Source of the DNA: Ktedonobacterales bacterium
Lineage (GTDB): Bacteria > Chloroflexota > Ktedonobacteria > Ktedonobacterales > JADMIN01
Length of the DNA: 32,000 nt
NCBI GenBank assembly: GCA_030167145.1
Contig: CP126532.1
Span: 1,260,001 to 1,292,000 of the forward strand
Direction: 5' to 3'
Shown: positions 1,848 to 21,598 of the stretch, piece after piece
Position numbering within the stretch: the first letter of the stretch is position 1
Layout: the number at the start of each line of letters is the position of its first letter
Made by a program: the position numbers and the translations under genes
Notes under the pieces: model-generated
Seen by the model: the letters and a program-made list of their open reading frames with translations, nothing else
What the model was told of the DNA's origin: nothing
Databases searched by the model: none

Positions 1848-3317
1848 ATGAGTCGCAGCAAATTTTGTCGAAGTGCGGTTAGGCAAGCGGTGAAACAGCC
1901 AGACGTGTCTTGGAACCCAGATGAGGCGGCGCTGCCGCCCGTGCCAACGCCGCCACGTGTTGTGCGGGTGCGCGGCCCAGCGCGGGGAGCGCAGGTCGTG
2001 ACATTGGGCGCGTTGGAGCCGCCCGGCTCGAAGTATTACACGCTGCGCTATGTGCTGAATGCGCTGCTGGCGGATGGCGAATCTGTGGTGCGTTTTCCGG
2101 CGCTGAGCGACGATACCGCCGGGCTAGTGCGGGCGGTGCGGGCGATGGGCGCGGGGGTGACATGGGAGCGGGCGGGCGCGGCGGAGGATTCCGGCTGGGC
2201 GCTGCGAGTTCGCGGTGTGGCGGGGCGGCCACAGACCCCGCCAGATGGCGTCATTCAGGCGGGGAATGCAGGCGCGGTGCTGCGGCTGCTGCTGGGCGTC
2301 GGCGCACTGCTGCCAGAGATACGCTTCGAGACCGACTATCCCACCTCGCTCGGCAAGCGTCCCAATGGGGATCTGCTGGATGCGCTGCGGGCGCTGGGCA
2401 TGGATGTGGAGGCGCGCGAGCCGGGGGGATTGCTGCCGATTACGCTGCGCGGCGGGCCGCCACGCGGGGGCGAAGTCACGGTTTCGGGTGCGCGCAGTTC
2501 GCAATATCTCAGCGCGCTGCTGTATCTCGCGCCGCTGCTGCCAGATGGGCTGGAGATTACGGTGCGCGATGAACTGCGCTCGGCGGCGCTCATCAGCGCG
2601 ACATTGCGGGCGCTGGCTATGGCGGGCATTATCGTGGAGTCCTCGCCCGATCTGCGCCGGTTTGTCGTGCCAGGAGGGCAGCGATTCATGGCGCAGGAGT
2701 ATGGTGTGCCAGGGGATGGGCCAACGGCGGCGGCGCTGCTGGCGGCGGCGATGACGCTGGGCGCGCCGCTGCGGCTGACGCGGCTGGATGAGAGCGAGGC
2801 GGATATGCGCGGGCTTATGGCGGCGCTGGATGCGCTGGGCGCGCCGCTGAGTGAGCGACCGGACACAGCCAAAGGGGCGAGCGCGCTGGCGGTGGCGGCG
2901 AAGGCGCGGCTGCGTGGTGGCACGGTGGATGGCGACGCCTGCATTGATAGCGTGCCCGCGCTGGTCGCGGCGGCATGCTTTGCCGACGGCGAGAGCCGGT
3001 TCGAGCGCGTGGGTACGTTGCGGCTGAAGGAGAGCGACCGCATCGGCGACCTCTGCGCGGAACTGGCGCGGGCGGGCTGCGATGTTGTGCCGGAGGATGA
3101 TTCGATTACTGTACGCGGGCAGCCGGAGGGCATACGTGGCGGGGTGACAGTGGACGCGCACGACGATCACCGGCTGGTGCAGGCGCTGGCTATCGTGGCG
3201 CTGCGCTGCGCGGAGGGGTTGACGATCACTGGCGCGGATGCAGTCGCCAAGAGCTATCCCGGCTTTTTCGCCGATCTGGCGCGGTTGGGGGCCGAGGTGA
3301 TGGTGATGAAGGAATGA
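1848..3317 (+). CDS. aroA: 3-phosphoshikimate 1-carboxyvinyltransferase (EPSP synthase)
   Basis: EPSPS hallmarks: PPGSKYYTLR (E. coli LPGSKSVSNR region), AGNAGAVLRL, RSSQYLSALLYLAPL, LRLKESDRI, DHRLVQALAIVAL, KSYPGFFADL. The start is uncertain. In-frame ATGs occur at 1779 and 1848 and a GTG at 1941. The track start 1689 overlaps the upstream gene and is unlikely. Confidence 0.85.
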   Translation: MSRSKFCRSAVRQAVKQPDVSWNPDEAALPPVPTPPRVVRVRGPARGAQVVTLGALEPPGSKYYTLRYVLNALLADGESVVRFPALSDDTAGLVRAVRAMGAGVTWERAGAAEDSGWALRVRGVAGRPQTPPDGVIQAGNAGAVLRLLLGVGALLPEIRFETDYPTSLGKRPNGDLLDALRALGMDVEAREPGGLLPITLRGGPPRGGEVTVSGARSSQYLSALLYLAPLLPDGLEITVRDELRSAALISATLRALAMAGIIVESSPDLRRFVVPGGQRFMAQEYGVPGDGPTAAALLAAAMTLGAPLRLTRLDESEADMRGLMAALDALGAPLSERPDTAKGASALAVAAKARLRGGTVDGDACIDSVPALVAAACFADGESRFERVGTLRLKESDRIGDLCAELARAGCDVVPEDDSITVRGQPEGIRGGVTVDAHDDHRLVQALAIVALRCAEGLTITGADAVAKSYPGFFADLARLGAEVMVMKE

Positions 3318-3358
3318 GATGGTGGTATGCTGTGCCAGAATGGAGGAGGGGTATAGCT

Positions 3359-3652
3359 ATGAGCACAGCCGTTATCAACGACGCTCTGCGCGAACAAATC
3401 GTCATCATCCTGCGGCGACATGGCGTGCTCCATGCTGGAATCTTCGGCTCTTTCGCGCGTGGAGCAGCGAATGACAGCAGCGACATTGATCTATTGATAG
3501 AGTTCCCACCGGGTAAAACGCTCTTTGATCTAGAGGCTCTGGCACTGGATCTCGAAGGTGTGGTAGGGCGGAAGGTTGATCTAATTACCTATCATGCGCT
3601 CAATCCGCACTTGCGCGAGCGCGTACTGCGCGAGCAGGTGGCGCTTATATGA
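3359..3652 (+). CDS. mntA: MntA-type nucleotidyltransferase antitoxin (type VII TA)
   Basis: Minimal nucleotidyltransferase motifs GIFGSFARG (GSxxRG) and SDIDLLIEF (DxD). GGAGGAGGGG lies upstream of the ATG at 3359. The stop overlaps the next gene's start (ATGA at 3649-3652). Confidence 0.85.
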   Translation: MSTAVINDALREQIVIILRRHGVLHAGIFGSFARGAANDSSDIDLLIEFPPGKTLFDLEALALDLEGVVGRKVDLITYHALNPHLRERVLREQVALI

Positions 3653-4005
3653 GCCAGCGAGCGCCGCGAATCATAGTAGAAGAACTACTGGAGAACATTC
3701 AGGTCATCCGTGAATACACTGAACACCTATCAGCCGATGCGTTTTTCGCCCAGCGTATGGTACAAGACGCAGTGGTGCGGAGGCTAGAGATACTCGGCGA
3801 AGCGGCAAACCAACTGCCAGTTGAGTGGAAGGATCAACACGCGGAGGTTCCCTGGCGGATTATCACTGGGATGCGTAACCGCCTGATCCACGGATATTTC
3901 TCCATTGACCTGAGTCTCGTATGGGGTACGATTACGCGCGATTTGCCGCCGCTGGAACAACAACTCAGGCAATTCGCGCAACAGGAGCCGCCCGAAGAAG
4001 CATAG
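3649..4005 (+). CDS. hepT: HepT-type HEPN (DUF86) toxin (type VII TA)
   Basis: The HEPN R-x4-H motif is present as RNRLIHGYF. Size is ~118 aa. It is translationally coupled to the upstream MNT gene, which is the canonical MntA-HepT order. Confidence 0.85.
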   Translation: MSQRAPRIIVEELLENIQVIREYTEHLSADAFFAQRMVQDAVVRRLEILGEAANQLPVEWKDQHAEVPWRIITGMRNRLIHGYFSIDLSLVWGTITRDLPPLEQQLRQFAQQEPPEEA

Positions 4006-4060: not shown

Positions 4061-4274
4061 GGGCGATTGCGCTCCCGAACGCCGCGCGACACCACCACTC
4101 CACCACACCGCACATGTCGCCGACGCAACACCACCACACCGCATCCACCACGGTCTCGCAATCACTGGTTGAAGTATAGGCGATGAGGCTGTCAGACAGG
4201 TGACAACCGGACCCTTCTTTCTGACAAATTGTTCAGTTAACGGCGGGACATCGGCGCATAGTGCGTGCATATGC

Positions 4275-4288
4275 TGACAATATTGTCA
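4275..4288. promoter_or_regulatory. Perfect 14-bp palindrome TGACAATATTGTCA (candidate operator)
   Basis: Read directly from the sequence. A related imperfect site, CTGACAAATTGTTCAG, lies at 4220-4235. Both sit in a 617-bp stretch (4006-4622) with no convincing ORF. Confidence 0.3.
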
Positions 4289-4622
4289 TGCAAACGCGCA
4301 CAGCCAGATCAGAGAGGCGGAATGACGGGCAGCGGGGAGAGCACTTGCTGGCTGAGGAGGCGGACGGGTTGTGGAGGATGGGGCGCAATAGAGCGCACGG
4401 TGATAGGCAAAGTGGGGCACGAATATTGCCGCGAGTGTCAGCGACCCTCGAACACGCATCTCAGCGCACGGGGGTGTAACAGGGATAGGCGATGCGACGG
4501 TGAAGATCGTCGCGGAGTGCAAGGGCGCACCGCGTCGCGTAGGACGTTGTGGCGCGCCTGGGCGCAGTCGTTCGTTTCGCCGCTTATGGAGGCGGCGTCA
4601 GCATCGCAAAGGAGCGAAGTAC

Positions 4623-5090
4623 ATGCCGGCTGAAGAAAACAAAGTGCTTGCCCGCCGTTTCATCGAGGAGTGCTTTAATAAGGGCAACCTCAACTCGGTG
4701 GATGAGCTTGTCGCCACCAATTACGTAGACCACGACCCGTCCATGCCAGGCGGGATATACGGGCCGTCGGGGGTGAAGCAATTCATCTCGATGTATCGCA
4801 CGGCTTTTCCTGATCTCGCCATCTCCATTGATGAGTTGTATGCTATTGGCGAGAATCGTGTGATGATGCGCTGGACGGCACGCGGCACGCATCGGGGCAC
4901 GCTGCAAGGCATACCTGCCACCGGCAAACAGGCGACGGTTTCGGGTATGACGCTCTCACGTTACGAGAATGGCAAGGGCGTTGAAGACTACAACAACTGG
5001 GATACGCTAGGACTGATGCAGCAGCTCGGCGTGATTCCGATGGCGTCGCAGCCGACGATGGGGACAGGGACGCAGCCATCGCCACATTAG
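4623..5090 (+). CDS. SnoaL-like ester cyclase family protein
   Basis: ARRFIEECFNKGNL...YVDHDP...GVKQFISMYRTAFPDL...RWTARGTHRG...GIPATGK matches the ester-cyclase/SnoaL pattern. An AAGGAG RBS lies at ~4609-4614 before the ATG at 4623. The track's upstream extension is Arg-rich junk. Confidence 0.8.
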   Translation: MPAEENKVLARRFIEECFNKGNLNSVDELVATNYVDHDPSMPGGIYGPSGVKQFISMYRTAFPDLAISIDELYAIGENRVMMRWTARGTHRGTLQGIPATGKQATVSGMTLSRYENGKGVEDYNNWDTLGLMQQLGVIPMASQPTMGTGTQPSPH

Positions 5091-5259: not shown

Positions 5260-6480
5260 TTACGGCCAGACTGACGATGCCTTGATGAACGGACTGGCAG
5301 AGGTCAATACGCCGTTTTTGACTTGCAGGAACTCGAAGTCGCTAATGCCGCCGTGCTGCGTAGCGGACCAGGTGAGCGTTGGACCAAAGCCGGTGTCGTA
5401 GCTGGTGAAGTCCTGGTTCAGCGCGGTGCGGAGGCTGTCGCGCGTGAGGTTTTGGCCCGCGTGGTTCAGCGCGTCCACTAGCAGCTTGGCGTTGATGTAG
5501 CCATAGAACTTGTAGGCGCTGAAGACGGTATCGCCTGTCGTCGCGGCGAGATACTGCTGGCCGACGGGGGTGTTGATGTCGGAGTAGCCGCTGACGTAGA
5601 TGCCCTCACCGGCAGCGCCGAGGAGCTTCGGCCAGGAATTGTCGGCCATGGGATAGTTCGCCAAGTAGCCTAGCGAGGGCTTGTAGCCAAGCTGGGCAGC
5701 GGTGGCGACGAACTTCGCGGTGGGGCCGGGCAGGCCGTTCAGGACGATGAGGTCGGGATTGGCGCTCTTCAGCGTTTGCACCGCCGCCGAGAAGTCGGTC
5801 TGGGTGGCCTTGTAGCCTACCGAGGCGACCAGATTCGCGCCGTATTTCTGGAGCGACTCGGCAAGGGTCTGCTTCTGCTGAAGGCCGAGCACGTCGTCTT
5901 CATAGAGCAGGGCTACGGATTTCGCGTGTAGCGTCTGCGTGGCGTAGTAACCAATGACGTGGCCTTCGTCGCCGTAGTTGGGCTGTGTCATCCACACCCA
6001 GGGCAGCGCGTTACCCTGGTCGTCGGTGAACTTCGCACCGCCGCCAATGGGATCAATGAAGGGAATGCCCTTCGGGTTAGTGTAGGTCTCGGCGACATTC
6101 GCGGCGCCAGAGCCACAGACCTGGAAGAGCGCGAAGGCGTTGTCTTGCTCGAAAAGCTGGCGTACTGCGTCTTTGGTCTTGGTGGAGTCGCCGTTGTCGC
6201 TGACCTGCACCAGTTTGATCTTGCGCCCATGGATGCCGCCAGCGGCGTTGATGGAGTCAATATAGAGTTGATCGCCAGCGAGAATTGGCGCGCAGATGAC
6301 CTTGAGCGGACCGGTGGTGTCAAGCACCGCGCCAATGGTGATCTCATTGTTGGTGACGCCGGGAACCGTCGCGCCTGCCGTGGCGCCGTTGCCACAGGCC
6401 GCCAGCACCAGAAGGGAAACCACAGTCCCCGCAAGCGCCAGCAGCCGCCGTGAAGTTCGGAGATTCGCTAGAAGTCCCAT
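5260..6480 (-). CDS. ABC transporter substrate-binding lipoprotein, Leu/Ile/Val-binding (type 1 PBP) family
   Basis: Signal peptide plus lipobox (LLALAGTVVSLLVLAACGNG). ITIGAVLDTTGPL...INAAGGIHGRKIKLV is typical of LivJ/K-like binding proteins. The start at ATG 6480 (MGLLANLR...) is preferred over the track's 6603. Confidence 0.9.
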   Translation of the reverse strand: MGLLANLRTSRRLLALAGTVVSLLVLAACGNGATAGATVPGVTNNEITIGAVLDTTGPLKVICAPILAGDQLYIDSINAAGGIHGRKIKLVQVSDNGDSTKTKDAVRQLFEQDNAFALFQVCGSGAANVAETYTNPKGIPFIDPIGGGAKFTDDQGNALPWVWMTQPNYGDEGHVIGYYATQTLHAKSVALLYEDDVLGLQQKQTLAESLQKYGANLVASVGYKATQTDFSAAVQTLKSANPDLIVLNGLPGPTAKFVATAAQLGYKPSLGYLANYPMADNSWPKLLGAAGEGIYVSGYSDINTPVGQQYLAATTGDTVFSAYKFYGYINAKLLVDALNHAGQNLTRDSLRTALNQDFTSYDTGFGPTLTWSATQHGGISDFEFLQVKNGVLTSASPFIKASSVWP

Positions 6481-6585: not shown

Positions 6586-6605
6586 ACATGACAAGTGAGT
6601 CATGT
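6586..6605. promoter_or_regulatory. Operator site 1: ACATGAC-AAGTGA-GTCATGT (putative TetR box)
   Basis: This 7-6-7 inverted repeat lies ~106 bp upstream of the binding-protein start. A minus-strand TTGACA (6636-6641) lies exactly 32 nt upstream of the core. Confidence 0.6.
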
Positions 6606-6869
6606 ATCATATACCCTACGTGAAGTCGTGCAGGTTGTCAAGTGGGGTGCTAGCAATTCGTTACCTGCCCAGATGAGCGGGCGGTTGAAACCGCGCCTGG
6701 ATGGCCTCTGGCCACGAAATCCGCCGTCGCGGGTTCGGGAGCGGACGATGGGTGAGGCAGGCCGCGCCCCACTGGCAGGCAGATCGGAAGGTCCGCCCCA
6801 CTTGGGCAGCGGCAGACGCGGCACGCGCACGGCTTGACATGTATCCCTGGCTATGGCATCATTGCTGAA

Positions 6870-6889
6870 ATATGACGAGTGAGTCATGT
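6870..6889. promoter_or_regulatory. Operator site 2: ATATGAC-GAGTGA-GTCATGT (putative TetR box)
   Basis: It matches site 1 at 18 of 20 positions and lies 47 bp upstream of the permease start. A plus-strand TTGACA (6834-6839) lies exactly 32 nt upstream of the core ATGAC (6872). Confidence 0.6.
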
Positions 6890-6935
6890 TACATGGTCGT
6901 AATGACGTGCTGGCAGAGATCGCGGGAGTAGGCGT

Positions 6936-7853
6936 ATGACGGCGGTGCTTCAGGTGGCGCTCGCGGGCGGAGTGACCGGGAGTCTGTACGGATTGCTCGC
7001 CGTGGGCATCGTGCTGATCTATCGGACGACAGGCGTTCTCAACTTCGCGTATGGGGCGATTGCCGCCGTCTGCGCATGCTTCATGTATGTGCTGCTGACG
7101 GGGCCACGGCTCAACTTCTGGCTGGCGCTGCCGCTGGCGCTGATCTTCGCGGTGGCGCTGGGGATTGCGCTAGAGCGGCTCTTCGCGCGGCCCGTGCTCA
7201 ACGCGCCGGTCTTCACGAAGGCTATCGCCACACTGGCGCTGGCGCTGGTGCTGCAAACGGTGGCGCAGCAGATCTGGCCGCAACTGGCGCAGCCAGAGCA
7301 TTTCCCTTCGCCTTTCGAGGGGCATGCGACGCGCATTGGTGGCCTATATATCTCTGCGATTGGCGTGACCGTGTTAGGTGTGACTGCGGTAGTGATGGTG
7401 GCGCTTGCGCTGTTTCTCAATCGCACGCGCTTGGGCATCGCGATGCGTGCGACCGCTGATAATCAGCCAGTGGCGCGGCTGATGGGGGTGCCGGTGGGGC
7501 TGGTCTTTCCACTGGTGTGGGCGCTCAGCGCGGTGGTGGCAGCGTTGACAGGTATTCTCTTCGCCAGCCAACAGGCAGTGATAGATGTGCAATTCATGGA
7601 TCCGCTGCTGATACTGGCGTTTGTCGCCGCCGTGCTGGGTGGGCTGGAGAGTCTGCCCGGCGCGCTGCTGGGTGGCTTGATCGTCGGGTTGACCGATAGC
7701 CTGCTGGCGCTGGTGCTGGCGGGGCGCCATGTAGGTGCGCTGGATGTAAGCGATCCGGGCATCCGCGCGGCGCTGATCTTCGGCGGATTCGTGCTGGTGT
7801 TGCTGCTACGGCCCCAGGGCCTATTCGGTCAGGCGGTCTTGCGCAAGGTGTGA
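6936..7853 (+). CDS. Branched-chain-amino-acid-type ABC transporter permease (LivH-type)
   Basis: Polytopic membrane protein. VGIVLIYRTTGVLNFAYG and GIAMRATADNQPVARLMG are typical LivH signatures. Confidence 0.9.
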   Translation: MTAVLQVALAGGVTGSLYGLLAVGIVLIYRTTGVLNFAYGAIAAVCACFMYVLLTGPRLNFWLALPLALIFAVALGIALERLFARPVLNAPVFTKAIATLALALVLQTVAQQIWPQLAQPEHFPSPFEGHATRIGGLYISAIGVTVLGVTAVVMVALALFLNRTRLGIAMRATADNQPVARLMGVPVGLVFPLVWALSAVVAALTGILFASQQAVIDVQFMDPLLILAFVAAVLGGLESLPGALLGGLIVGLTDSLLALVLAGRHVGALDVSDPGIRAALIFGGFVLVLLLRPQGLFGQAVLRKV

Positions 7854-7898
7854 TGCTGATTTACTGATATGACCTGTAGACGATGGGAGCGGGCATTT

Positions 7899-9002
7899 AT
7901 GGCAGCTCAACAAACTCCAGGATCCTCTGCCTCCGCACCAGCGCCCACGATGGCGCGGCTCTCGCGACTGGCGTGGGTCCGAGGGGCGCGTGTGCTTACC
8001 CAGGGCGGCGGCGCAACGTTCGCGGTGGTGGCGCTTGTGCTGGCGCTGCTGCCAACGCTCTTCGATGGATTCTTTGGATTCAGCGCGGGATTCCAACTGC
8101 ATCGCATCACGTTGATCGGTATCTTCGTGATCGCTGCCTTCGCGCAGAACATCCTGACCGGCTACGCAGCGCAGGCTTCGCTGGGCAATGCGGCGTTTTT
8201 CGGCGTCGGTGGCTATATGCTGGCGTGGCTCACCAATGACCTCGGCAAGCCGTATTGGGCGGGGATTCTGGTCGCGGTGGGGGTCGCGGCGGTGGTGGGG
8301 ATTCTGGTCGGAGGTCCGGCGCTGCGAATCTCTGGGGCGTATCTGGCCATCGCGACACTGGGCTTGGTCTTCGTGACGGTTTCGCTGCTGGATCTGTGGG
8401 ATACGACCGCCGGACGGCAGAACTACGACCTTTCGAACCTGCCTGCGTTGCTGACTGACGACCACACGCTCTACTACACGATTCTGGTTATCACAGTCGT
8501 GCTGCTCTGGCTCGGACGTAACCTCTTGCGTTCGCGGGTGGGGCGCGCGTGGATCGCCATCCGCGACAGCGAAGCGGCAGCGGAGGCGGTGGGCGTGAAT
8601 CTGGCGCGCTTTAAGTTGCTGGCGTTCGTGGTGAGCGCGATGCTAACGGGGCTGGCGGGCGCGCTCTACGCGACGTGGGCCACGACGGCCAGCTCTTCTA
8701 TGGCGAGCGCCGACCAGACCATCGCGTTTCTGACGATGATTATTGTTGGCGGGCTAGGGTCTATCACCGGCTCGATTCTCGGCGCGATCTTCGTGGGCTT
8801 TCTGCCGCTGCTGCTCGGCCAGTTACCCAGCCCCCTCACCATCGGTTCGGCGCAGATCCAGGTCTCGACGCTGACGACCGGCATCTACGGTATGTTGCTA
8901 CTGCTGGCGCTGGTGTTCTTTCCTAGTGGCCTGAGCAGCCTGGGCGGGCGTGGGCGGGCACTGTGGACGCGGCTGCGTTCCCGCGCGGGAGGCCAACCAT
9001 GA
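7899..9002 (+). CDS. Branched-chain-amino-acid-type ABC transporter permease (LivM-type)
   Basis: GYAAQASLGNAAFFGVGGY, ISGAYLAIATLG and RVGRAWIAIRDSEAAAEAVGVN are typical LivM signatures. The ATG at 7899 is preferred. The stop overlaps the next start (ATGA at 8999-9002). Confidence 0.85.
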   Translation: MAAQQTPGSSASAPAPTMARLSRLAWVRGARVLTQGGGATFAVVALVLALLPTLFDGFFGFSAGFQLHRITLIGIFVIAAFAQNILTGYAAQASLGNAAFFGVGGYMLAWLTNDLGKPYWAGILVAVGVAAVVGILVGGPALRISGAYLAIATLGLVFVTVSLLDLWDTTAGRQNYDLSNLPALLTDDHTLYYTILVITVVLLWLGRNLLRSRVGRAWIAIRDSEAAAEAVGVNLARFKLLAFVVSAMLTGLAGALYATWATTASSSMASADQTIAFLTMIIVGGLGSITGSILGAIFVGFLPLLLGQLPSPLTIGSAQIQVSTLTTGIYGMLLLLALVFFPSGLSSLGGRGRALWTRLRSRAGGQP

Positions 9003-9838
9003 CGGCAGCGACGCCCATGTCATTGCTGGAGATTCGCGGGCTGACGGTGCGCTTCGGCGGCCTGGTGGCGATCAATGATCTGGACCTGACGATCCGAATG
9101 GGGCAGATCTTCGCGCTGGTTGGCCCGAATGGGGCGGGCAAGACGACGGTGCTTAACTGTGTAAGCGGGTTTGTGCGGCCAGAGCACGGCACGATTCGCC
9201 TGGCGGGGACTGACCTGCTGCCGCTGGGGCGAGATATGCGGGCGCGGCTGGGCATTGGGCGCACGTTTCAGAATGTGCAGCTTTTCTCTTCGATGAGTGT
9301 GCTCGATAATCTGGTGACGGCGCAGCACTCGCGCCTGCGCGCGGGTATGCTGAGCGGAATGCTGCCCTTTGGACGTGGTCCGGCTGAGGATGCGCGGGCG
9401 CGCGAGCGGGCGCGTGAGATGCTGGCGCTGCTGGACCTCGAAGCCTACGCGGATGTGATTGCCGGAACGCTGCCGCTGGGCGCGCGGAAGCTGGTGGGCG
9501 TAGCGCGGGCGCTAGTCTTGAAACCGCGCCTGGTGCTGCTGGACGAGCCGGCGGCGGGTGTGCCGCACGCGGAGGTGACGGCGCTGGCGGAAAAGCTGCG
9601 TTCCTGGCGCGACACACTGGGCGCTACGCTGCTGTTGATTGAGCATAACATGGCGCTGGTGCAGGCGGTGGCCGATAGCGTCTGCGCGCTGAATTACGGC
9701 AGCAAGCTGGCCGAGGGCAACCCACGTGAGGTGCTCTCGCATCCAAGCGTGCTGGAGGCATATCTGGGCCGCGAAGCTGGGAGCGAGGCAGGTAGCGAAA
9801 CGGGGAGTGAAGTGGAGAGCCGCGATGCTGAAGGTTGA
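8999..9838 (+). CDS. ABC transporter ATP-binding protein (LivG-type)
   Basis: Walker A GPNGAGKTT, signature-like LPLGARKLVGVARAL, Walker B LVLLDEPAAG, and the H-loop in LLIEHNM. It has a low-complexity C-terminal tail, GREAGSEAGSETGSEVES. Confidence 0.9.
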   Translation: MTAATPMSLLEIRGLTVRFGGLVAINDLDLTIRMGQIFALVGPNGAGKTTVLNCVSGFVRPEHGTIRLAGTDLLPLGRDMRARLGIGRTFQNVQLFSSMSVLDNLVTAQHSRLRAGMLSGMLPFGRGPAEDARARERAREMLALLDLEAYADVIAGTLPLGARKLVGVARALVLKPRLVLLDEPAAGVPHAEVTALAEKLRSWRDTLGATLLLIEHNMALVQAVADSVCALNYGSKLAEGNPREVLSHPSVLEAYLGREAGSEAGSETGSEVESRDAEG

Positions 9839-10532
9839 GCGGGTGAGCACAGGCTACGGGCCGCTTGAAGTGCTGCGCGAGGTCTCGCTAGAGGCGCGGG
9901 CAGGCGAAATCGTGGCCGTGCTGGGCGCGAATGGCGCGGGCAAGACAACGTTGATGCGTGCGCTCACCGGGCTACTGGCGACGCGCGCCGGGGCAATTTG
10001 GCTGGATGGCCAGCATGTGGAGCGCTTGGCGCCGGAGCGGCGTGTGCGCCTGGGGCTGGCGCTGGTGCCGGAAGGGCGTGATCTCTTCGGCTCGCTCACG
10101 GTGCGCGAGAATCTGGTGATGGGCGCATTCACGCGGCGGGCGAGCGCGGAGATCGAAGCGGCGATGGCGCGCGTGCTGGCCTATTTCCCTCGGCTCAAGG
10201 ATCGGCTGCATGCGCAGGCGGCGAGCCTGAGCGGCGGCGAAGGGCAGATGCTGGCGATTGGGCGCGCGCTCATGTCGCAGCCACGGGCGCTGCTACTGGA
10301 CGAACCGTCGCAGGGACTTGCGCCGATTGTGGTGGAGGCGGTCTTCGATGTGCTGGCACGGCTGAACCGCGACGAAGGGCTAACGATTCTGCTGGTGGAG
10401 CAGAACGCGCGCAAGGCGCTGGGCATCGCGGGGCGAGCATACGTCTTGCAGTCGGGCACGGTGGCGCTCCACGGGACGCCGCGCGAACTGGCCGATACGG
10501 CGACGCTGCGCGAACTCTATCTGGGCGGCTAG
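9825..10532 (+). CDS. ABC transporter ATP-binding protein (LivF-type)
   Basis: Walker A GANGAGKTT, signature LSGGEGQMLAIGRAL, Walker B LLLDEPSQGL, and LLVEQN. The ATG at 9825 (MLKVERVSTGYG) overlaps the LivG-type gene by 14 nt. Confidence 0.9.
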   Translation: MLKVERVSTGYGPLEVLREVSLEARAGEIVAVLGANGAGKTTLMRALTGLLATRAGAIWLDGQHVERLAPERRVRLGLALVPEGRDLFGSLTVRENLVMGAFTRRASAEIEAAMARVLAYFPRLKDRLHAQAASLSGGEGQMLAIGRALMSQPRALLLDEPSQGLAPIVVEAVFDVLARLNRDEGLTILLVEQNARKALGIAGRAYVLQSGTVALHGTPRELADTATLRELYLGG

Positions 10533-10948
10533 CACTTCACCGTTGCCTCGCCGCTGAGCACCGGCTCGCCGTGCTGGTTGACGCAGTCGGTGCTCAGCGT
10601 GACCAGGCGCTTTTCTGCACGGATGGCGGTGACTTCGACCGACGCGGTGATGGTGTCGCCGATGTAGACTGGCCGGAGAAAGCGGAATGATTGCGCCAGA
10701 TAGATCGCGCCGGGGCCGGGGAGATCGTTGCCGAGCACAGCGGAGACCAACGCGCCAGTGAGCATGCCGTGCGCGATCCGTCTGCCGAATGGCGAGCAAG
10801 CTGCGTAGGCGTCGTCCAGGTGGATCGGGTTGTGGTCGTCGCTCAGTTCGGCGAAGCGCGCGATGTCGTTGGCAGTGATAGTGCGTGTGCGCGCCGCGCG
10901 AGCGCCCACCACAGGCAGAGGTCTGGCGGTGTCTTCGTTGGGCGTCAT
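10529..10948 (-). CDS. MaoC-like (R)-specific enoyl-CoA hydratase / hot-dog dehydratase
   Basis: The hydratase 2 motif FAELSDDHNPIHLDDAYAA is followed by FGRRIAHGML. The start overlaps the upstream ligase stop (ATGA). Its stop shares CTAG (10529-10532) with the convergent ATPase gene. Confidence 0.85.
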   Translation of the reverse strand: MTPNEDTARPLPVVGARAARTRTITANDIARFAELSDDHNPIHLDDAYAACSPFGRRIAHGMLTGALVSAVLGNDLPGPGAIYLAQSFRFLRPVYIGDTITASVEVTAIRAEKRLVTLSTDCVNQHGEPVLSGEATVKC

Positions 10949-12522
10949 GATTGTCTCCCTTCGGGCTGGCTACTCTGGCTCGGCGTGGGAGGCGGCGTGA
11001 CGCCTGCGATGTAGCGAGCACGCAGGTCTGCTTTGATGACTTTGCCCATCGCGTTGCGCGGCAGAGCGTCGCTGAAGACGACCCGGCGCGGCAACTTGTA
11101 GCGCGCAAGCTTGCCGTCGCAGAACGCGAGCACATCTTCCGCCCCGAGGCTGCCCGGCACGCGCGGCACGACCACCGCCACGCCGACCTCGCCCCATTTG
11201 GCGTCTGGCTGCGCGATGATCGCGGCTTCAGCGATGCCGGGGTGCGTGGCCAGCAGGCCTTCGACTTCAGCGGGATAGACATTTTCGCCGCCGGAGATGT
11301 ACATGTCCTTCTTGCGTCCGACAATGGCGTAATAGCCCTCGTCATCGCGGGTCACGAGGTCGCCGGTGTGCCACCAGCCGTCGCGGAATACCTCCGCCGT
11401 GGCCTCAGGCCGCCGCCAGTAGCCAGAGCAGACATGCGGACCAGCCAGCGCCAGCTCGCCAACCGCGCCGGGGGCCACGTCGCGGCCCGCGTCATCTACG
11501 ATGCGCGCCCAGGAGTGGAAGACGGGCCGGCCAACTGAGCCAGCTTTGCGAACGGCGTCTTCGGGGGCGAGACTGAAGCAGTTGACGCCTACCTCCGTCA
11601 GCCCGTAGCCCTGGCGAAAGACGAGACCGCGCGCGGCGTAGCGTTCGATGAGTGGCAATGGGCACGACGAGCCGCCTGTCACACAGAAGCGCACCGAGGA
11701 GAAATCGGTGGTGGCGAAGGTGGGATGCTCCATGAGCGACTGGAAGACGGTGGGCACGGCGAAGACGATGGTGCAGTGCTCAACGGCGATGGCGCGCAAC
11801 ACCACATCTGGCACAGCCGAGGGCAGCAGGACCACCGTGCCACCGCAGTGGTAGAGCGGGGTGGTCAGCACGTTGAGGCCGCCCGCGTGAAAGAATGGCG
11901 CGAAGGTCGGCGTGATATCGGTTTCCGCCAGCCCCCAACTGACCTGCGTGTTGATTGCGTTCCAGGTGAGCATGCGGTGCGAGAGCATCGCGCCTTTGGG
12001 GATGCCAGTGGTGCCGGAGGTGTACAGGATCAGCGCGATTTCTTCGCCATCGGCGCAGGCAAAGGGACGTGCTCGCGCGGCCAGTTCCGCATGCGCGCCG
12101 GGAAAAGCGCCAGCCGCGTAGAGCAGCGGCGGCTGAGCGGAGACCGGCAATGCGCCACGTGCCGCTTCGGCAAGCTGATGATAGGCGGCGTCGTGCAGCA
12201 GCAGGCGCGGCTCGCAATCGGTGAGAATCGTGGCTAGTTCCGGGGGTGTCAGCCGCCAGTTGAGCGGCACGAAGATCGCGCCGAGCAGCGCGCAGGCGAA
12301 GAAGGCGTCCAGATATTCCGGCGAGTTCGCGGCGAGCATCGCTACACGGTCGCCCTGGCGTATGCCATAGCGTTCGGCGAGCAGCGCGGCCAGCGCCCGC
12401 GCACGCAGATTCAGCGTGCGATAGGTCAGTCGCGCGCCGGTCGCCACATCCACTATGCCGATTTTGTCAGGCGTTAGTTGCTCGCGGCGGACGAGCCATT
12501 CGCCGACTCCGAGGAAAGACAT
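10945..12522 (-). CDS. AMP-dependent acyl-CoA synthetase/ligase (ANL superfamily)
   Basis: ANL core motifs: LYTSGTTGIPKGAML, GYGLTE, WWHTGDLV, GRKKDMYISGGENVYPAEVE, and the C-terminal PRNAMGKVIK. The N-terminus MSFLGVGEWLVRR is typical. The start overlaps the upstream gene by 49 nt. Confidence 0.9.
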   Translation of the reverse strand: MSFLGVGEWLVRREQLTPDKIGIVDVATGARLTYRTLNLRARALAALLAERYGIRQGDRVAMLAANSPEYLDAFFACALLGAIFVPLNWRLTPPELATILTDCEPRLLLHDAAYHQLAEAARGALPVSAQPPLLYAAGAFPGAHAELAARARPFACADGEEIALILYTSGTTGIPKGAMLSHRMLTWNAINTQVSWGLAETDITPTFAPFFHAGGLNVLTTPLYHCGGTVVLLPSAVPDVVLRAIAVEHCTIVFAVPTVFQSLMEHPTFATTDFSSVRFCVTGGSSCPLPLIERYAARGLVFRQGYGLTEVGVNCFSLAPEDAVRKAGSVGRPVFHSWARIVDDAGRDVAPGAVGELALAGPHVCSGYWRRPEATAEVFRDGWWHTGDLVTRDDEGYYAIVGRKKDMYISGGENVYPAEVEGLLATHPGIAEAAIIAQPDAKWGEVGVAVVVPRVPGSLGAEDVLAFCDGKLARYKLPRRVVFSDALPRNAMGKVIKADLRARYIAGVTPPPTPSQSSQPEGRQS

Positions 12523-13586
12523 GCCGCACCCTCCCCCCAGCGGAGCGCCGTCGCTCCCCAGGTGAAACCCAATCCGGCGCTGGCCAGCACGACCAGATCG
12601 CCGTCGCGCAAGCGCCCCGCAGCGGTGGCTAGCTCTAGCGCCAGCACCTGATCAGGCGCGCCGATATGCCCATAGTCGGAGAGATAGAGCGATTGATCGT
12701 CACGCAGTTCCAGCATGGATAGGATACGCCTGTGCATTGACGGTTTCATATGGTTGATGGCGAGAAATGCGATGTCGGCAAGTGAGCAGCCGCTAGCCGT
12801 GACCGCTTCGCGCACGACATGCACGAAGCGCTGCTCCGAGATGCCATCCAACCCCGCTTTGAGCGCCTGTACATCGGAGACGTGGAAGGAATGCTGGCCC
12901 GCGTTCAGCGTCTGATGCGAGGTTGGCAGCCGGACGCCGCCCGCTGGAATCATGACTAACTCCGACAGTGAACCATCGGTGATGAACGCCGACTCCAGCA
13001 GCACATTGGCGGGATGGTCACGCCGCAGCACCATCGCACTGCCGCCATCGGAGAGATTGTAGAGGAAGCGCGCCGAGGGGTCACGCAAGTTGATCAGATC
13101 GGCGGTGCGGTGGCCGCCGCAGATCAGCACGGTGCGCAGCCGTGGGTCAGCGGTCATCAGGTCGCGAGCAACCTTGAGCGCGAGCACGTTGGTGGTGCAG
13201 AGAGCGACCAGTTCGAAGGCGTAGGCGTTCTTCGCGCCGAGCAGGTGCTGAATGCGGTTGGCGGCAGACCAGACGTAGAAATCTTTATGCATGCTGCCGG
13301 AATAGAGGATCAGGTCAAGCTCCAGCGGACCAACACCGGCCCGCGCCAGCGCACGCTCAGCGGCCCACACGGCCATCGCCGAGGTTTGGTCGGCTGGCCC
13401 AGCGCGGTGTTTGGCGTGGATGCCTAGCTTCTCGCGGACGACCTCCAGTGGCAGGCCGCTCTCCCCCGCCAGATAGGCCGCGTCCTGCACGTGCTCAGGC
13501 AGATAGGTCGCCAGGGCCATCAAACCAATGCGCGGACGGCTTGAAGCCACTGCGGCGCTCGCCTGTGGCACGTGACCTGAATCCAT
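12474..13586 (-). CDS. KAS III (FabH)-like thiolase-fold condensing enzyme / acyltransferase
   Basis: FabH-like layout: candidate nucleophile Cys in FELVALCTTNV, His in FLAINHMKPS, and C-terminal GLGFTWGATALRW. The third triad position appears to be His (DYGHIGAPD) rather than Asn (by-eye alignment). Confidence 0.75.
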   Translation of the reverse strand: MDSGHVPQASAAVASSRPRIGLMALATYLPEHVQDAAYLAGESGLPLEVVREKLGIHAKHRAGPADQTSAMAVWAAERALARAGVGPLELDLILYSGSMHKDFYVWSAANRIQHLLGAKNAYAFELVALCTTNVLALKVARDLMTADPRLRTVLICGGHRTADLINLRDPSARFLYNLSDGGSAMVLRRDHPANVLLESAFITDGSLSELVMIPAGGVRLPTSHQTLNAGQHSFHVSDVQALKAGLDGISEQRFVHVVREAVTASGCSLADIAFLAINHMKPSMHRRILSMLELRDDQSLYLSDYGHIGAPDQVLALELATAAGRLRDGDLVVLASAGLGFTWGATALRWGEGAACLSSESANGSSAASN

Positions 13587-13603
13587 ACGACACCCCTCTC
13601 ATG

Positions 13604-13625
13604 AACATGACAAGTGAGTCATGTT
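13604..13625. promoter_or_regulatory. Operator site 3: AACATGAC-AAGTGA-GTCATGTT (putative TetR box)
   Basis: This 8-6-8 inverted repeat has a central 20 nt identical to site 1. It lies 18-39 bp upstream of the KAS-III-like start (13586). Confidence 0.6.
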
Positions 13626-13630
13626 TCATA

Positions 13631-13659
13631 ATTTTAGCGGGGACAGCGCAAAAAGTCAA
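13631..13659 (-). promoter_or_regulatory. Sigma-70-like promoter TTGACT-17 nt-TAAAAT for the KAS-III-like/ligase/MaoC operon
   Basis: Read on the minus strand, the -35 is TTGACT (13654-13659), the spacer is 17 nt and the -10 is TAAAAT (13631-13636). The operator core begins 8 nt downstream. The -10 overlaps the TAA stop of the hydrolase gene. Confidence 0.5.
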
Positions 13660-14881
13660 GAAGGCCGCGCTTGCGGTGCGGCGTCTCATCGCTGGAGGGT
13701 GTGGCAACGGCGGGAGTGGATGGCTCTGCGGGCGGTTGCGTGGGCGCTGCGGTGTCCGCTGGGGCAGCGCGCAGGAACGCGGTGAGCAGCGCGCGGAACT
13801 CGTCGGGGTGTTCGATGACGGGGGAATGGCCGCAGGCAGCGATGACCTCTTCGCGGTAGAGACCGCCCTGCGCCGCGTAGCGGTCGAGCACGGCGCGCAA
13901 CTGCGCCAGCATCGGCTGCGACGGATACACCTCGTCGCCGGGCCAGCCGGGAATGACGCCGAGTTTGCCCAGGTTGCCGGGGTCGGCGAGTGAGGCGTCG
14001 CTTACCACCTGGTCGTCCGCGCCGCGAATCCACAAAATTGGCGGCTTGCGCTCCAGGTCGGCCAGCCCGCTCTGATTGAGATATTTGGGCGAGAGTGCGT
14101 TGTTCGCGCCGTAGACACCAGGACTGCGGAATGGCCAGTTTGGCGAGGGCACGCTGTCGCCGGGGTAATAGTTGTCGCCGATGGTCATCAGCAGCATCTG
14201 CTCGACCAGGATGTCTTCGCGTTCCGGCGCATACTGGAAGCCTGGCTTCACGTAGAGTGTTCGCAGCGCAGAGCGCGGAGAGAACGGCGAATCCGCCGTC
14301 GTGTCTTTGGCCTCGTAGTGGGTGCGTAGGTCGGGGCTGATGAGTCCCGCGCCACTGCCCGCAAAATCGTCGTAATTTGGCTGGCCGTCAGGCCCATGCG
14401 TACAGCCAAAACCGTAGGGCGAGCCGGGCGCTTGCAATGTGAGGGTGCGGACGCGCTCCGGGTGATCGAGCAGGTAGTGCATGGCGATGTTGCCGCCGAG
14501 CGACCACCCCAGCAGGTGAAAGCGCGCCAGTCGCAGAGCTTCGATCAACGCATGCAGATCATCGCTGAAGTCGCGCAGGCCACGGGTCGCGTCCACGGTG
14601 CGGGATTCGGTGGCGCCGTAGCCACGTAGGTCGGGTGCGACGATGTAGTACTGTGGCAGCGACGCCATCAACTCTTCATAGAAGCGTGCGGATGAGGCAT
14701 TGCCGTGGATGAGCACCAGTGGCTCCGCGTCTGGCTGGCCACTCTCGTAGATGTGCTGTGCCAGGCGCGATGTGGCGATCATCCGCGAGCGGACGCCGGG
14801 CAGCAGCGGAAAGCGCGAGCCGGGTGGCGTTGTCGTGGCGGCGGATTCCGTGGTGGGCGAAAAGCGCGTGTCATCAGCCAT
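13634..14881 (-). CDS. Alpha/beta-fold hydrolase with Pro/Ala-rich C-terminal tail
   Basis: LVLIHGNASS (oxyanion region) and the nucleophile elbow GWSLGG, with a late ACGHSPVIEHP (catalytic His region). AGGAGG lies 7 nt upstream of the ATG at 14881, so the track start at 14974 is rejected. Confidence 0.8.
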   Translation of the reverse strand: MADDTRFSPTTESAATTTPPGSRFPLLPGVRSRMIATSRLAQHIYESGQPDAEPLVLIHGNASSARFYEELMASLPQYYIVAPDLRGYGATESRTVDATRGLRDFSDDLHALIEALRLARFHLLGWSLGGNIAMHYLLDHPERVRTLTLQAPGSPYGFGCTHGPDGQPNYDDFAGSGAGLISPDLRTHYEAKDTTADSPFSPRSALRTLYVKPGFQYAPEREDILVEQMLLMTIGDNYYPGDSVPSPNWPFRSPGVYGANNALSPKYLNQSGLADLERKPPILWIRGADDQVVSDASLADPGNLGKLGVIPGWPGDEVYPSQPMLAQLRAVLDRYAAQGGLYREEVIAACGHSPVIEHPDEFRALLTAFLRAAPADTAAPTQPPAEPSTPAVATPSSDETPHRKRGLLDFLRCPR

Positions 14882-14913
14882 CGAGAGCCTCCTGTGGGAT
14901 ACTCTGCTCAGTA

Positions 14914-14933
14914 ACATGACTGGTACGTCATAT
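14914..14933. promoter_or_regulatory. Operator site 4: ACATGAC-TGGTAC-GTCATAT (putative TetR box)
   Basis: It has the same ATGAC/GTCAT arms and 6-nt spacing. It sits in the divergent region between the hydrolase start (14881) and the TetR start (15056). Confidence 0.55.
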
Positions 14934-15055
14934 TTTATGCGGTCAGTATGGCATGCCAGGGTTGGCGGGGTCAAGCCTGCGCCCAGGACTGTGGACAGCG
15001 CAACGGTGGTGTGCGAGAATTGCGGCGAAAGGCCCGCGTAACTCAGGAGATTCTC

Positions 15056-15757
15056 ATGACAGTAAAGAAATCAGCTTCTCAGACAGCGGAGCAGCCAGCA
15101 ACTGCGGAGACGCTTGCCCAGGGGCGCGACGCGCACCGTGATGAGACCGCGCCGCTCGTGCCAGTGACGGCGCGCGGCGAGGCGACGCGGCGGCGCATCC
15201 TCGACGCGGCGGAGGATGTATTTGGTGAGATGGGGTACTACGAGGCGAGTATCTCTGAGATTACGCGGCGAGCGGGCGTGGCCCAAGGCACATTTTACAT
15301 CTACTTCCATACCAAGCGCGAGATTTTCGCAGAGATGGTTGGCGATCTGGGGCATCAGTTGCGCGCGGCGACACGGGCGGCCATCACGGGCGCGCCGAAC
15401 CGGATCGAGGTCGAACGGCGCGGCTTTGCGGCGTTTTTCGCGTTCGTTGCGGCGCACCGCCAGTTGTATCGTATCGTGCAGGAATCGGAGCGCGTTGCGC
15501 CAGAGGCGGCCCAAGGATATTACGACGCGATCAGCCGGGGGTATGAGCAGGGGCTACGCGAGGCGATGGCGGCGGGCGAGATCGCGCCTGCCAATGCTGA
15601 GGCGATTGCCTACGCGCTGATGGGTATCGGTCACTTTCTGGCGCTGCGCTGGCTGGTGTGGCCGCAGGGAGCGCAGGCGGATGCGCTGCCGGACGAGGTG
15701 CTTACGTCGGCGCTGGAGTTCATCACGCGCGGGCTGGGGGGGCCAACAGGCGAGTGA
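15056..15757 (+). CDS. TetR/AcrR family transcriptional regulator
   Basis: The N-terminal HTH is RRRILDAAEDVFGEMGYYEASISEITRRAGVAQGTFYIYFHTKREIF. An AGGAG RBS lies at 15044-15048 before the ATG at 15056. Confidence 0.9.
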   Translation: MTVKKSASQTAEQPATAETLAQGRDAHRDETAPLVPVTARGEATRRRILDAAEDVFGEMGYYEASISEITRRAGVAQGTFYIYFHTKREIFAEMVGDLGHQLRAATRAAITGAPNRIEVERRGFAAFFAFVAAHRQLYRIVQESERVAPEAAQGYYDAISRGYEQGLREAMAAGEIAPANAEAIAYALMGIGHFLALRWLVWPQGAQADALPDEVLTSALEFITRGLGGPTGE

Positions 15758-18163: not shown

Positions 18164-19792
18164 ATGGCTGGCAATGGCAGGGTCTTCATCAGTCATTCAC
18201 ACGACGACAACGCGCGCTGTGCGCCGCTGCTGGCGGCGATGGAAGCCTGGGGCGTAGACTATTTCTTCGATACGCAGGGGTTGGGCGCCGGGCAGCAACT
18301 CAACGAGACGATACAGCGCGAGATTGCCACTCGCGATGTCTTCTTGCGCGTCTGCACCGCCGCCACACAGCGATCGTTCTGGATGAGCCTGGAAGTCAGC
18401 GCCTTTCGTGGCTTGCAGGCGGAGGACCAGCGCCGGGGACGGGGTAGCCAGCGGCTGCTGATCAATCTGATTCTCGACGGCGACTATACCCGCGAGCCGT
18501 TTGACAACGCAACGCTCTTCATTGACGCCGCCAGCAGGCCGCGCCCGGTGTGGATGGCAGAATTGGGGCGGGCATTGAATGTTTCGGCTCCCAGGGCGCA
18601 ACGTCCGAAGGTTAGCCGTCGCGAGGTGGTGGCATACGGGGCGGCTGCCGCCGTCACCCTCAGTTCCACCGCAGCGGCAGGGGCGCTCTTTCTCGACTAT
18701 CGCAGTCATACGCAAGGTCCGGTGGCGCAATTGCCGAAGTACTTGCCCGGCAAGCCGGTCTGGACGATCCCCAACGCCAGCCCGAAGAAGGATATACCAA
18801 CGTTGCCCGTGGTCGGTGGTAATACGCTCTACCTGTTGAGCGTGGCGGATGTGACCGCCTACGATATTGGGCATGTCACCAATGGCACGCCCAAGAAGCT
18901 CTGGAGCCAGACCATCACGCCGAAGCAAACCATCGTCTCGCCGGCGGTGTATGGAAGTGTGCTGTATCTGGGTATAGATTCGACGCTGTACGCGCTCAAT
19001 GCCCACAATGGCACGAAGATTTGGACCGTTGACCTGCCTGCAGATGATAACGGGATAGATTCGGGAGCGCTGTTAGTGAACGGCGTGATCTACATCTTCT
19101 CTCAGACGGGCCGCCTCTATACCTTCAGGGCTAAAGATGGCTCGCAGGTGTGGAATGATGTTGTGGATGCGACGGCATACTTACTCGACCACGCTTCTGG
19201 CCCGGCGGTGGATGGGGACAGTGTGTTCATCGGCTCACTGGATCATAACATCTATGCGCTGAATGCCAAAGACGGCTCGCAACGCTGGAAGGTGTTGACG
19301 CGCGGCCCCGTCATCTCGACACCAGCGGTGGTCAACGGCACTGTCTATATTGGCTCTGGTGACAATTACGTCTATGCCCTGAACACCAAAGACGGCTCGG
19401 TCAGGTGGAAGTATTTGACGGGTGAAGCGGTGAATTCAAGCCCAGCCGTGGTGGACGGTGTCGTCTACGTTGCCTCTGACGACCACTATCTCTACACGCT
19501 CGATGCCGAGACTGGCAAGCCGTACTGGCGCGCGCCTATCGGTGACCTCGATGCCTCAACGGGCATCATCGAAAAGGGCGGCCCTGTCACCTGCCAACCG
19601 GCTATCGCGGGCGATGCCGTTTGCGTGATGGACGATCTAAATTTCGTCGTTCGCAGCTACAGCCGCTCCGACGGCGAGTCGCGATGGACTTATGCATCCA
19701 AGAGCGGCTATGAGAACGCGGATCCGTTAGCCGCCAACGGACTTATTCTCTTCGGCTCCGGCGACCAAACCCTCTACGCTTTTGGCGCATAA
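18164..19792 (+). CDS. TIR domain - single TM - PQQ-like beta-propeller protein, paralogue 1
   Basis: The N-terminus GRVFISHSHDD...WGVDYFFDT...GAGQQL...DVFLRVCT...SFWMSLE matches the bacterial TIR (TIR_2-like) pattern. SRR plus the hydrophobic VVAYGAAAAVTLSSTAAAGALFL occupies residues ~151-177. Repeated blades follow, such as NIYALNAKDGSQRWK, YVYALNTKDGSVRWKY and YLYTLDAETGKPYWR. AGAGGAAGGGG lies upstream of the ATG. Confidence 0.8.
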   Translation: MAGNGRVFISHSHDDNARCAPLLAAMEAWGVDYFFDTQGLGAGQQLNETIQREIATRDVFLRVCTAATQRSFWMSLEVSAFRGLQAEDQRRGRGSQRLLINLILDGDYTREPFDNATLFIDAASRPRPVWMAELGRALNVSAPRAQRPKVSRREVVAYGAAAAVTLSSTAAAGALFLDYRSHTQGPVAQLPKYLPGKPVWTIPNASPKKDIPTLPVVGGNTLYLLSVADVTAYDIGHVTNGTPKKLWSQTITPKQTIVSPAVYGSVLYLGIDSTLYALNAHNGTKIWTVDLPADDNGIDSGALLVNGVIYIFSQTGRLYTFRAKDGSQVWNDVVDATAYLLDHASGPAVDGDSVFIGSLDHNIYALNAKDGSQRWKVLTRGPVISTPAVVNGTVYIGSGDNYVYALNTKDGSVRWKYLTGEAVNSSPAVVDGVVYVASDDHYLYTLDAETGKPYWRAPIGDLDASTGIIEKGGPVTCQPAIAGDAVCVMDDLNFVVRSYSRSDGESRWTYASKSGYENADPLAANGLILFGSGDQTLYAFGA

Positions 19793-19892
19793 GCGCGCCG
19801 AGTCTGGCATGGAAACGACACGCAACTACAGGCTGGCAGGCCGTTCGCGTGGTTGCGAGTGGGCAAGAATACTCTGAAGGGGAGGAATGTGC

Positions 19893-21509: not shown

Positions 21510-21598
21510 AGATGTGGGCAGGCCAGCAGGGTGGATGTTGGTTGAGCGACGGCGCGAGCTTTACTTGTGGCTCATAAGCGATGAATGGGGAGAGTGCC

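Follow-up and report, generated by a model that had tools for sequence, protein, structure and literature searches.

Four 20-bp palindromes as putative operators of a FadR_Sa-like TetR-family regulator in a Ktedonobacterales gene cluster

A 32-kb stretch of the Ktedonobacterales bacterium contig CP126532.1 (positions 1,260,001 to 1,292,000; hereafter the window) carries a cluster of genes coding for a solute-binding protein (SBP), an ATP-binding cassette (ABC) importer of the Liv type, coenzyme A (CoA)-dependent enzymes, a hydrolase, and a TetR-family regulator (TetR; 15056-15757), and the inverted repeat ATGAC-N6-GTCAT is found in front of several of these genes. Does TetR govern the cluster through these repeats, and if so, with what sign and in response to what ligand? 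An original prediction, made from the sequence alone, proposed that the repeats are operators of the adjacent TetR and that the genes for uptake and CoA-dependent processing form a local regulon. Three independent computational lines support this proposal, because the motif lies at orthologous positions beside TetR in other genomes, a motif-first search recovers the same cluster, and the motif has its core and spacing in common with that of the archaeal regulator FadR_Sa. We estimate a probability of about 0.8 that the four palindromes are operators of this TetR, a FadR_Sa homologue that would act as an acyl-CoA-released repressor of four promoters.

A 20-bp palindrome and its recurrence beside tetR

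There are four exact copies of ATGAC-N6-GTCAT in the window, starting at 6588, 6872, 13607, and 14916, and none of 100 dinucleotide-preserving shuffles reaches four; the shuffle mean of 0.03 is the same as the chance expectation in the original prediction, which also reported the sequences at the four sites correctly to the base. Sites 1 (6586-6605) and 3 (13605-13624) share the 20-mer ACATGACAAGTGAGTCATGT, site 2 (6870-6889) is ATATGACGAGTGAGTCATGT, and site 4 (14914-14933) is ACATGACTGGTACGTCATAT. The element had been described as a 16-bp palindrome, and although the ATGAC-N6-GTCAT core stands, its real length is 20 bp, with the outer A and Y/R positions conserved, and the full motif is A-Y-ATGAC-N6-GTCAT-R-T. 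This 14-position pattern (AYATGAC-N6-GTCATRT) occurs four times in the window versus zero in the shuffles, and permitting two mismatches in the 10-base pattern adds just scattered matches, chiefly in coding DNA. Sequence likeness among the sites ends outside 20-27 bp. The claim that all of the sites are intergenic also holds when the true gene starts are set using Pfam (SBP, 6480; LivH, 6936; KASIII-like, 13586; hydrolase, 14881; TetR, 15056), with all four lying between genes.

An alignment of TetR orthologues gave 80 loci from reference genomes, of which 23 are from Ktedonobacteria (331 kb) and 57 from other phyla (L024-L080; 900 kb), with the best locus being 69% identical. The 23 Ktedonobacteria loci contain 19 exact matches to AYATGAC-N6-GTCATRT (zero in shuffles) and 32 matches with at most one mismatch (0.1 in shuffles). 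Although the gene orders are rearranged, these sites are at orthologous places, namely one each in the SBP/LivH divergent region, upstream of the KAS or ligase operon, upstream of the hydrolase gene, and between genes next to tetR; all 23 of the cluster sites have the outer A and Y/R. The sole ATGAC-N6-GTCAT lacking the outer bases in the flanks of these loci is ~8 kb from tetR and outside the cluster; it reads GAT GAC TTC GAT GTC ATC, which fits coding DNA, though no gene is called there, and it serves as an internal chance control. In the other phyla, where the TetR homologues are 42-54% identical, we found eight sites with at most one mismatch (0.3 expected), and these adjoin TetR, KAS, ligase, or SBP homologues. 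Five actinobacterial loci (L047, L058, L070, L072, and L075), whose named members are Microbacteriaceae genera, have an identical variant site, ACCTGAATCGTCTGTCATGT, upstream of transporter genes.

A motif-first scan of metagenome contigs with the query ACATGACTCANNTGTCATGT returned 64 loci, the informative subset being those with at least 0.60 G+C. Homologues of TetR, SBP, LivH, KAS, ligase, or hydrolase are located beside the site in 13 of the 14 contigs in this subset. About 45 of the 64 matches are in low-GC contigs, with the 20-mer lying within CATG/TGTG-rich tandem repeats that are unrelated to the TetR cluster; in L102, L105, L121, L126, L140, L144, and ~40 others (0.31-0.49 G+C, from a few sample series), ACATGACTCAnnTGTCATGT is inside such repeats, with site spacings of 25 to ~130 bp. 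Matches in L103, L124, and L127 adjoin unrelated genes (Usp, SPFH, and GAF) and are compatible with chance. In L092, a perfect operator (980-999) follows a TTGACA / TGGCATTAT promoter and precedes a gene for an MFS transporter in place of LivH, which may be an extra regulon member in a relative. Literature searches with the motif strings, and on TetR operators in Ktedonobacteria, gave nothing of relevance.

Position of the putative operators at predicted promoters

We predicted promoters using a sigma-70-like consensus scan, and identified the SBP promoter by eye. A promoter-like element lies directly upstream of each site and is oriented toward the regulated gene, with the predicted -10 being 7 nt from the operator at sites 1 and 2, 6 nt at site 3, and 11 nt at site 4. 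The LivH-operon promoter (TTGACA-17-CATCAT, with the upstream TG of an extended -10; 6834-6862, + strand) precedes operator 2 (6870-6889, + strand), and the hydrolase promoter (TTGACC-18-CATACT, also with an upstream TG; 14945-14974, - strand) precedes operator 4 (14914-14933, - strand). Operator 3 follows the KAS-operon promoter (TTGACT-17-TAAAAT; 13631-13659, - strand), the -35 of which is inside the 3′ end of the hydrolase gene, and operator 1 is downstream of a putative SBP promoter inferred at 6613-6641 (- strand), TTGACA (6641-6636)-17-TAGGGT (6618-6613), which is under the scan threshold.

These -10 elements are conserved. A LivH -10 of the form TG(G/T)CAT(A/G/C)(A/G)T precedes the operator by 6-7 nt in 9 of 10 loci (17 nt in L013), the KAS -10 (TAAAAT/TAAACT) and the hydrolase -10 (TGnCATACT/TGGTATACT) are retained in L015 and L017, and SBP orthologues have TATA-rich -10 elements at the same place. 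A hydrolase promoter candidate, CTGGCA-16-TAAAAT, was dropped in favor of TTGACC-18-CATACT, as the TG-extended CATACT is the one conserved in those two loci. Because conserved -10 elements directly precede them, the four operators are predicted to cover the transcription start regions (~ +1 to +20), a position typical of repressor binding.

Sites 1 and 3, which are identical over 20 bp with differing flanks, each have a third half-site 7 bp beyond the core. The composite operator 1 (6586-6612, - strand) consists of the palindrome and the half-site ATCATAT (6606-6612; ATATGAT in gene orientation), and operator 3 (13605-13631, - strand) of the palindrome and TTCATAA (13625-13631); read toward their genes, ATATGAT is followed by ACATGAC at site 1 and TTATGAA by ACATGAC at site 3. 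The spacer at both sites begins with TCA, and two overlapping dyads are thus formed. SBP orthologue sites have the arrangement [TGAC/TGAT]-ACATGAC-TCAnnT-GTCATGT, and other Ktedonobacteria keep the composite form at both their SBP and their KAS operators. In L004, L016, and L019, tandem full operators with a 16-bp offset precede LivH, and in the window a possible decayed second operator, ATGTTACATGGTCGTAATGA (6886-6905, + strand), is at the same 16-bp offset from operator 2; it is a weak match, with 10 of 14 positions.

The original prediction also proposed that tetR is autoregulated, for which the promoter geometry gives no support. A candidate tetR promoter (TGGACA-17-GAGAAT, with an upstream TG; 14992-15020, + strand) was found in the consensus scan and does not overlap an operator, and a TG-extended TATAAT ahead of tetR is conserved in L002, L005, L008, and L015. 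Direct autorepression is not indicated here, because the tetR -10 (15015-15020) is ~80 nt from site 4, which sits beyond the divergent hydrolase promoter, downstream of it, and is placed to control that promoter. In Dictyobacter alpinus (L001), an operator does follow the promoter facing tetR.

There are no further sites with the extended motif in the window or in the flanks of the orthologous loci, and it is plausible that the regulon is compact. Two palindromes related to each other, CTGACAAATTGTTCAG (4221-4236) and CTGACAATATTGTCAT (4274-4289), lie 53 bp apart in the ~600-bp gap upstream of a SnoaL-like gene (ATG at 4624), two occurrences versus 0.05 expected. They have the TGAC-N6-GTCA core in common with the TetR operator, but the conserved outer bases are absent, and they could be weak additional sites or the operator of another regulator.

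The regulator and competing explanations

The 233-aa TetR has a TetR_N helix-turn-helix domain (PF00440, E 1.5e-15, residues 48-94), and, as expected for an operator of this family, the four 20-bp palindromes are within 8.5 kb of tetR and at adjacent promoters. Its closest PDB match is FadR_Sa (6EL2/6EN8), with homology along the entire protein, 31% identity over 171 ungapped residues (E 1.4e-28), and a score of 103 bits versus 48 bits for the next sequence. FadR_Sa is Saci_1107 of Sulfolobus acidocaldarius, with structures solved with lauroyl-CoA (6EL2) and with DNA (6EN8), and it is released by acyl-CoA in a chain length-dependent manner (PMC6449355). Chromatin immunoprecipitation sequencing (ChIP-seq) of FadR_Sa gave TTGAC-N6-RTCAA motifs, a 16-bp dyad with examples such as TTGACATTATAATCAA and TTGATACCTGAGTCAA (PMC6449355). 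The essential FadR_Sa DNA contacts G48, Y51, and Y53 correspond to G78, Y81, and Y83 here, the CoA contacts R73, K77, and R86 to R103, R107, and R116, and F97 to F127; CoA binding by R73 and R86 has been validated by mutagenesis (PMC6449355). Among 21 orthologues, residues Q77, G78, T79, Y81, Y83, R103, and R116 are invariant.

We considered the curated NCBIfam regulator families (FasR, ScbR, FadR_Bac, and others) as possible homes for TetR, and all of the scores are far under the cutoffs, with 63.7 bits for FasR (NF053731), the best match (cutoff 330), and 49.5 bits for FadR_Bac (NF053878; cutoff 200). Because these families score so poorly, we place TetR in an unnamed family nearest to FadR_Sa, and by sequence comparison it is a bacterial homologue of this acyl-CoA-responsive regulator.

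We therefore propose the following mechanism, in which binding, the sign of repression, the ligand, and the two-dimer mode are all inferred from homology. A TetR dimer would cover the start region of each of P_sbp, P_livHMGF, P_kas-lig-maoC, and P_hyd, and repressor bound there would prevent initiation or promoter escape. The extra half-site 7 bp away at P_sbp and P_kas may bring in a second dimer, which would parallel the two binding modes of FadR_Sa and also QacR. The ligand class is likely narrowed to acyl-CoA, and the inducer would be the acyl-CoA made by the cluster's own ligase acting on an imported acid; by binding TetR, this acyl-CoA would open the dimer and free the DNA, such that uptake, activation, and further CoA-dependent processing are switched on jointly. 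An organic or (hydroxy-)fatty acid substrate would be consistent with the transporter family and the set of enzymes.

Several observations weigh against this proposal. Three FadR_Sa DNA contacts of helix alpha-3 are replaced in TetR (Y47Q, L49T, and F52I), and the CoA contact R132 is replaced by G162, with R161 adjacent. The replacing Q, T, and I are invariant among the Ktedonobacteria orthologues and would fit an altered outer-base specificity. The transcription starts are predictions, the predicted tetR promoter is without an operator in this genome, and the sites were counted in a 32-kb window, so that TetR could have more targets, or another regulator could have more sites. The four sequences also fold as RNA hairpins, with energies of -8.5 to -14.8 kcal/mol and z scores of -2.4 to -5.4.

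The lack of a site at the tetR promoter speaks for the idea that another transcription factor, with its gene elsewhere and perhaps of the CRP/FNR type, binds the palindromes, with TetR being irrelevant or using another operator; the sequence searched was that of the window. CRP-type sites do have a 5-N6-5 dyad format, which these palindromes share, but the ATGAC half-site differs from those of TGTGA-N6-TCACA and TTGAT-N4-ATCAA, and the sites are downstream of the -10 elements rather than near -41.5 or -61.5, where activators typically bind. We regard such a factor as unlikely, as the motif travels with this TetR family over phyla and rearranged gene orders, FadR_Sa, the closest characterized homologue, binds the same TGAC-N6-GTCA core, and only one ATGAC-N6-GTCAT, without the conserved outer bases, is found in the flanking DNA of the 23 Ktedonobacteria loci outside of the cluster genes. 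The operator positions, at or just after the predicted starts, also make it quite unlikely that TetR binds these sites as an activator or dual regulator in the manner of the mycobacterial TetR-type FasR. FasR is the best NCBIfam match, albeit far below its cutoff, and FasR structures are the third-best PDB match, but FadR_Sa is a much closer homologue and is a repressor.

The folding noted above would suit palindromes that act as RNA, either as stem-loops in 5′ untranslated regions influencing mRNA stability or translation, or as terminators, and a scan flagged site 3 as resembling a terminator on the + strand. We rejected site 3 as a terminator, as its stem is AT-rich and there is no T-run on the transcribed (-) strand. 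More generally, the stem keeps its exact sequence, and not just its pairing, in dozens of sites from several phyla, pairing is lost in the single-mismatch variants with no compensating change, the operator probably spans the transcription start such that just part of it would be transcribed, and the sequence has the core and spacing of a known protein-binding motif, which together make an RNA role very unlikely; no Rfam family matches anywhere in the window. That the copies are chance occurrences, or parts of a dispersed repeat or a mobile element, is effectively refuted, even though the same 20-mer is present in the unrelated low-GC tandem repeats of some metagenomes, by the four copies in the window versus 0.03 expected, the end of similarity at 20-27 bp, and the orthologous positions across genera. 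Repression by TetR, relieved by acyl-CoA, is thus the reading that we favor.

The gene module and its comparison with known systems

The gene assignments of the four units in the original prediction are confirmed by Pfam and NCBIfam. The SBP is a periplasmic protein of the Liv/Peripla_BP_6 type (5260-6480, - strand; PF13458, 2.8e-62), and the ABC transporter operon (6936-10532, + strand) codes for LivH-like (6936-7853) and LivM-like (7869-9002) permeases and ABC ATPases (8963-9838 and 9726-10532). The KASIII-like/ligase/MaoC operon (10529-13586, - strand) comprises genes for a KASIII-like protein (12474-13586), an acyl-CoA ligase (10945-12522), and a MaoC dehydratase (10529-10948), and next to it is the gene for a 415-aa alpha/beta hydrolase (13634-14881, - strand), the N-terminal part of which resembles intracellular polyhydroxybutyrate (PHB) depolymerases; JGI gene calls agree for the hydrolase and for tetR (+ strand). 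Other than TetR, there is no recognizable regulator between 4.5 and 17 kb, in accord with the earlier statement that it is the only one in the cluster, and the cluster is flanked by unrelated genes, SnoaL-like on one side and RecF-like on the other. The KASIII-like protein scores over the NCBIfam PRK06840 cutoff and is functionally uncharacterized; when aligned to FabH, the catalytic Cys and His are retained and the Asn is replaced by His (GHIGAP versus GNTSAA), giving a Cys-His-His triad. Its gene is paired with a ligase gene in multiple phyla, and the TetR, ligase, KASIII-like, hydrolase, MaoC, and Liv-type ABC genes are repeatedly found together in Actinomycetota, Bacillota, Myxococcota, Proteobacteria, Acidobacteriota, and other Chloroflexota.

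Some other features of the window were noted. The convergent LivF-like and MaoC genes have stops that overlap by 4 bp (10529-10532), and the ligase start may be further downstream than annotated, because the annotated start overlaps the end of the KASIII-like gene by 49 bp (12474-12522). Outside the cluster, three tandem paralogues (18164-23257; 542, 540, and 558 aa) with an N-terminal TIR domain and a PQQ-like beta-propeller may be a defense-related or signaling array, and the overlapping neighbors at 3314-4005, coding for an MNT-type nucleotidyltransferase (PF18765/PF01909) and a HepT-like RNase (PF01934), are a HEPN/MNT toxin-antitoxin module.

A TetR regulator with a palindromic operator beside its targets is textbook in itself, and the additions here are a 20-bp consensus, operators of composite form, a connection to FadR_Sa, and the conservation across phyla of operator and uncharacterized gene module alike. 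This provides a testable regulon for the little-studied Ktedonobacteria, made up of an operator consensus, four promoters, and a probable class of inducer, and it suggests that the DNA specificity of FadR_Sa is common to a widespread, unnamed bacterial TetR family. More speculatively, and with considerable doubt, TetR and its 20-bp operator could be the bacterial counterpart of archaeal FadR_Sa across Chloroflexota, Actinomycetota, Bacillota, Myxococcota, and Proteobacteria, controlling an uncharacterized module of a Liv-type ABC importer, an acyl-CoA ligase, the KASIII-like protein (Cys-His-His), a MaoC hydratase, and a PHB-depolymerase-like hydrolase, and possibly a new CoA-dependent acid pathway. 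If this were so, the module could serve, for instance, to salvage 3-hydroxyalkanoates or oligoesters and not for the usual degradation of fatty acids, and the 'archaeal' FadR lineage would have bacterial relatives of equal DNA specificity. The operator could act as a genomic marker with which to trace the module and eventually to assign its pathway.

Among characterized TetR operators, the McbR-type sites of Corynebacterium (TAGAC-N6-GTCTA) have the same 5-N6-5 format with a GAC/GTC core; McbR itself is functionally unrelated (sulfur metabolism), and the parallel is a lead only. The overlapping dyads at sites 1 and 3, with the third half-site conserved in orthologues, resemble in layout the 'pair of dimers' operators of QacR; QacR IR1 is 28 bp, and its offset and length differ from those of sites 1 and 3. 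Bacterial TetR-type FadRs, including Bacillus subtilis YsiA/FadR (3WHB) and those of B. halodurans (5GP9) and T. thermophilus (3ANG), repress fatty-acid and acyl-CoA genes (PMC6449355), and are similar in having palindromic operators at promoters and release by acyl-CoA. However, their similarity to TetR is distant (~40 bits in the PDB search), and their ligand pocket differs from, and is non-homologous to, that of FadR_Sa (PMC6449355).

The closest parallel in the PDB search is FadR_Sa, which has four sites and represses one cluster of esterase, acyl-CoA synthetase, and beta-oxidation genes, and whose operators are bound in some cases by one dimer and in others by two (PMC6449355). The two systems differ in several respects. 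FadR_Sa is from an archaeal host with TBP/TFB-type promoters, whereas TetR is from a bacterium (Chloroflexota) with sigma-70-type promoters; the outer base of the FadR_Sa motif is T rather than A, and the operator here has two more conserved outer positions to make up 20 bp. The FadR_Sa cluster includes a full beta-oxidation set, whereas a Liv-type ABC importer, a KASIII-like protein, and MaoC are found here, and fadR_Sa has its own operator, which tetR apparently does not. Nonetheless, both systems have the same TGAC-N6-GTCA core and spacing (TTGAC-N6-RTCAA versus ATGAC-N6-GTCAT), both have four sites in one cluster with an esterase or hydrolase and acyl-CoA synthetase(s), and in both, certain operators point to a second, overlapping binding unit.

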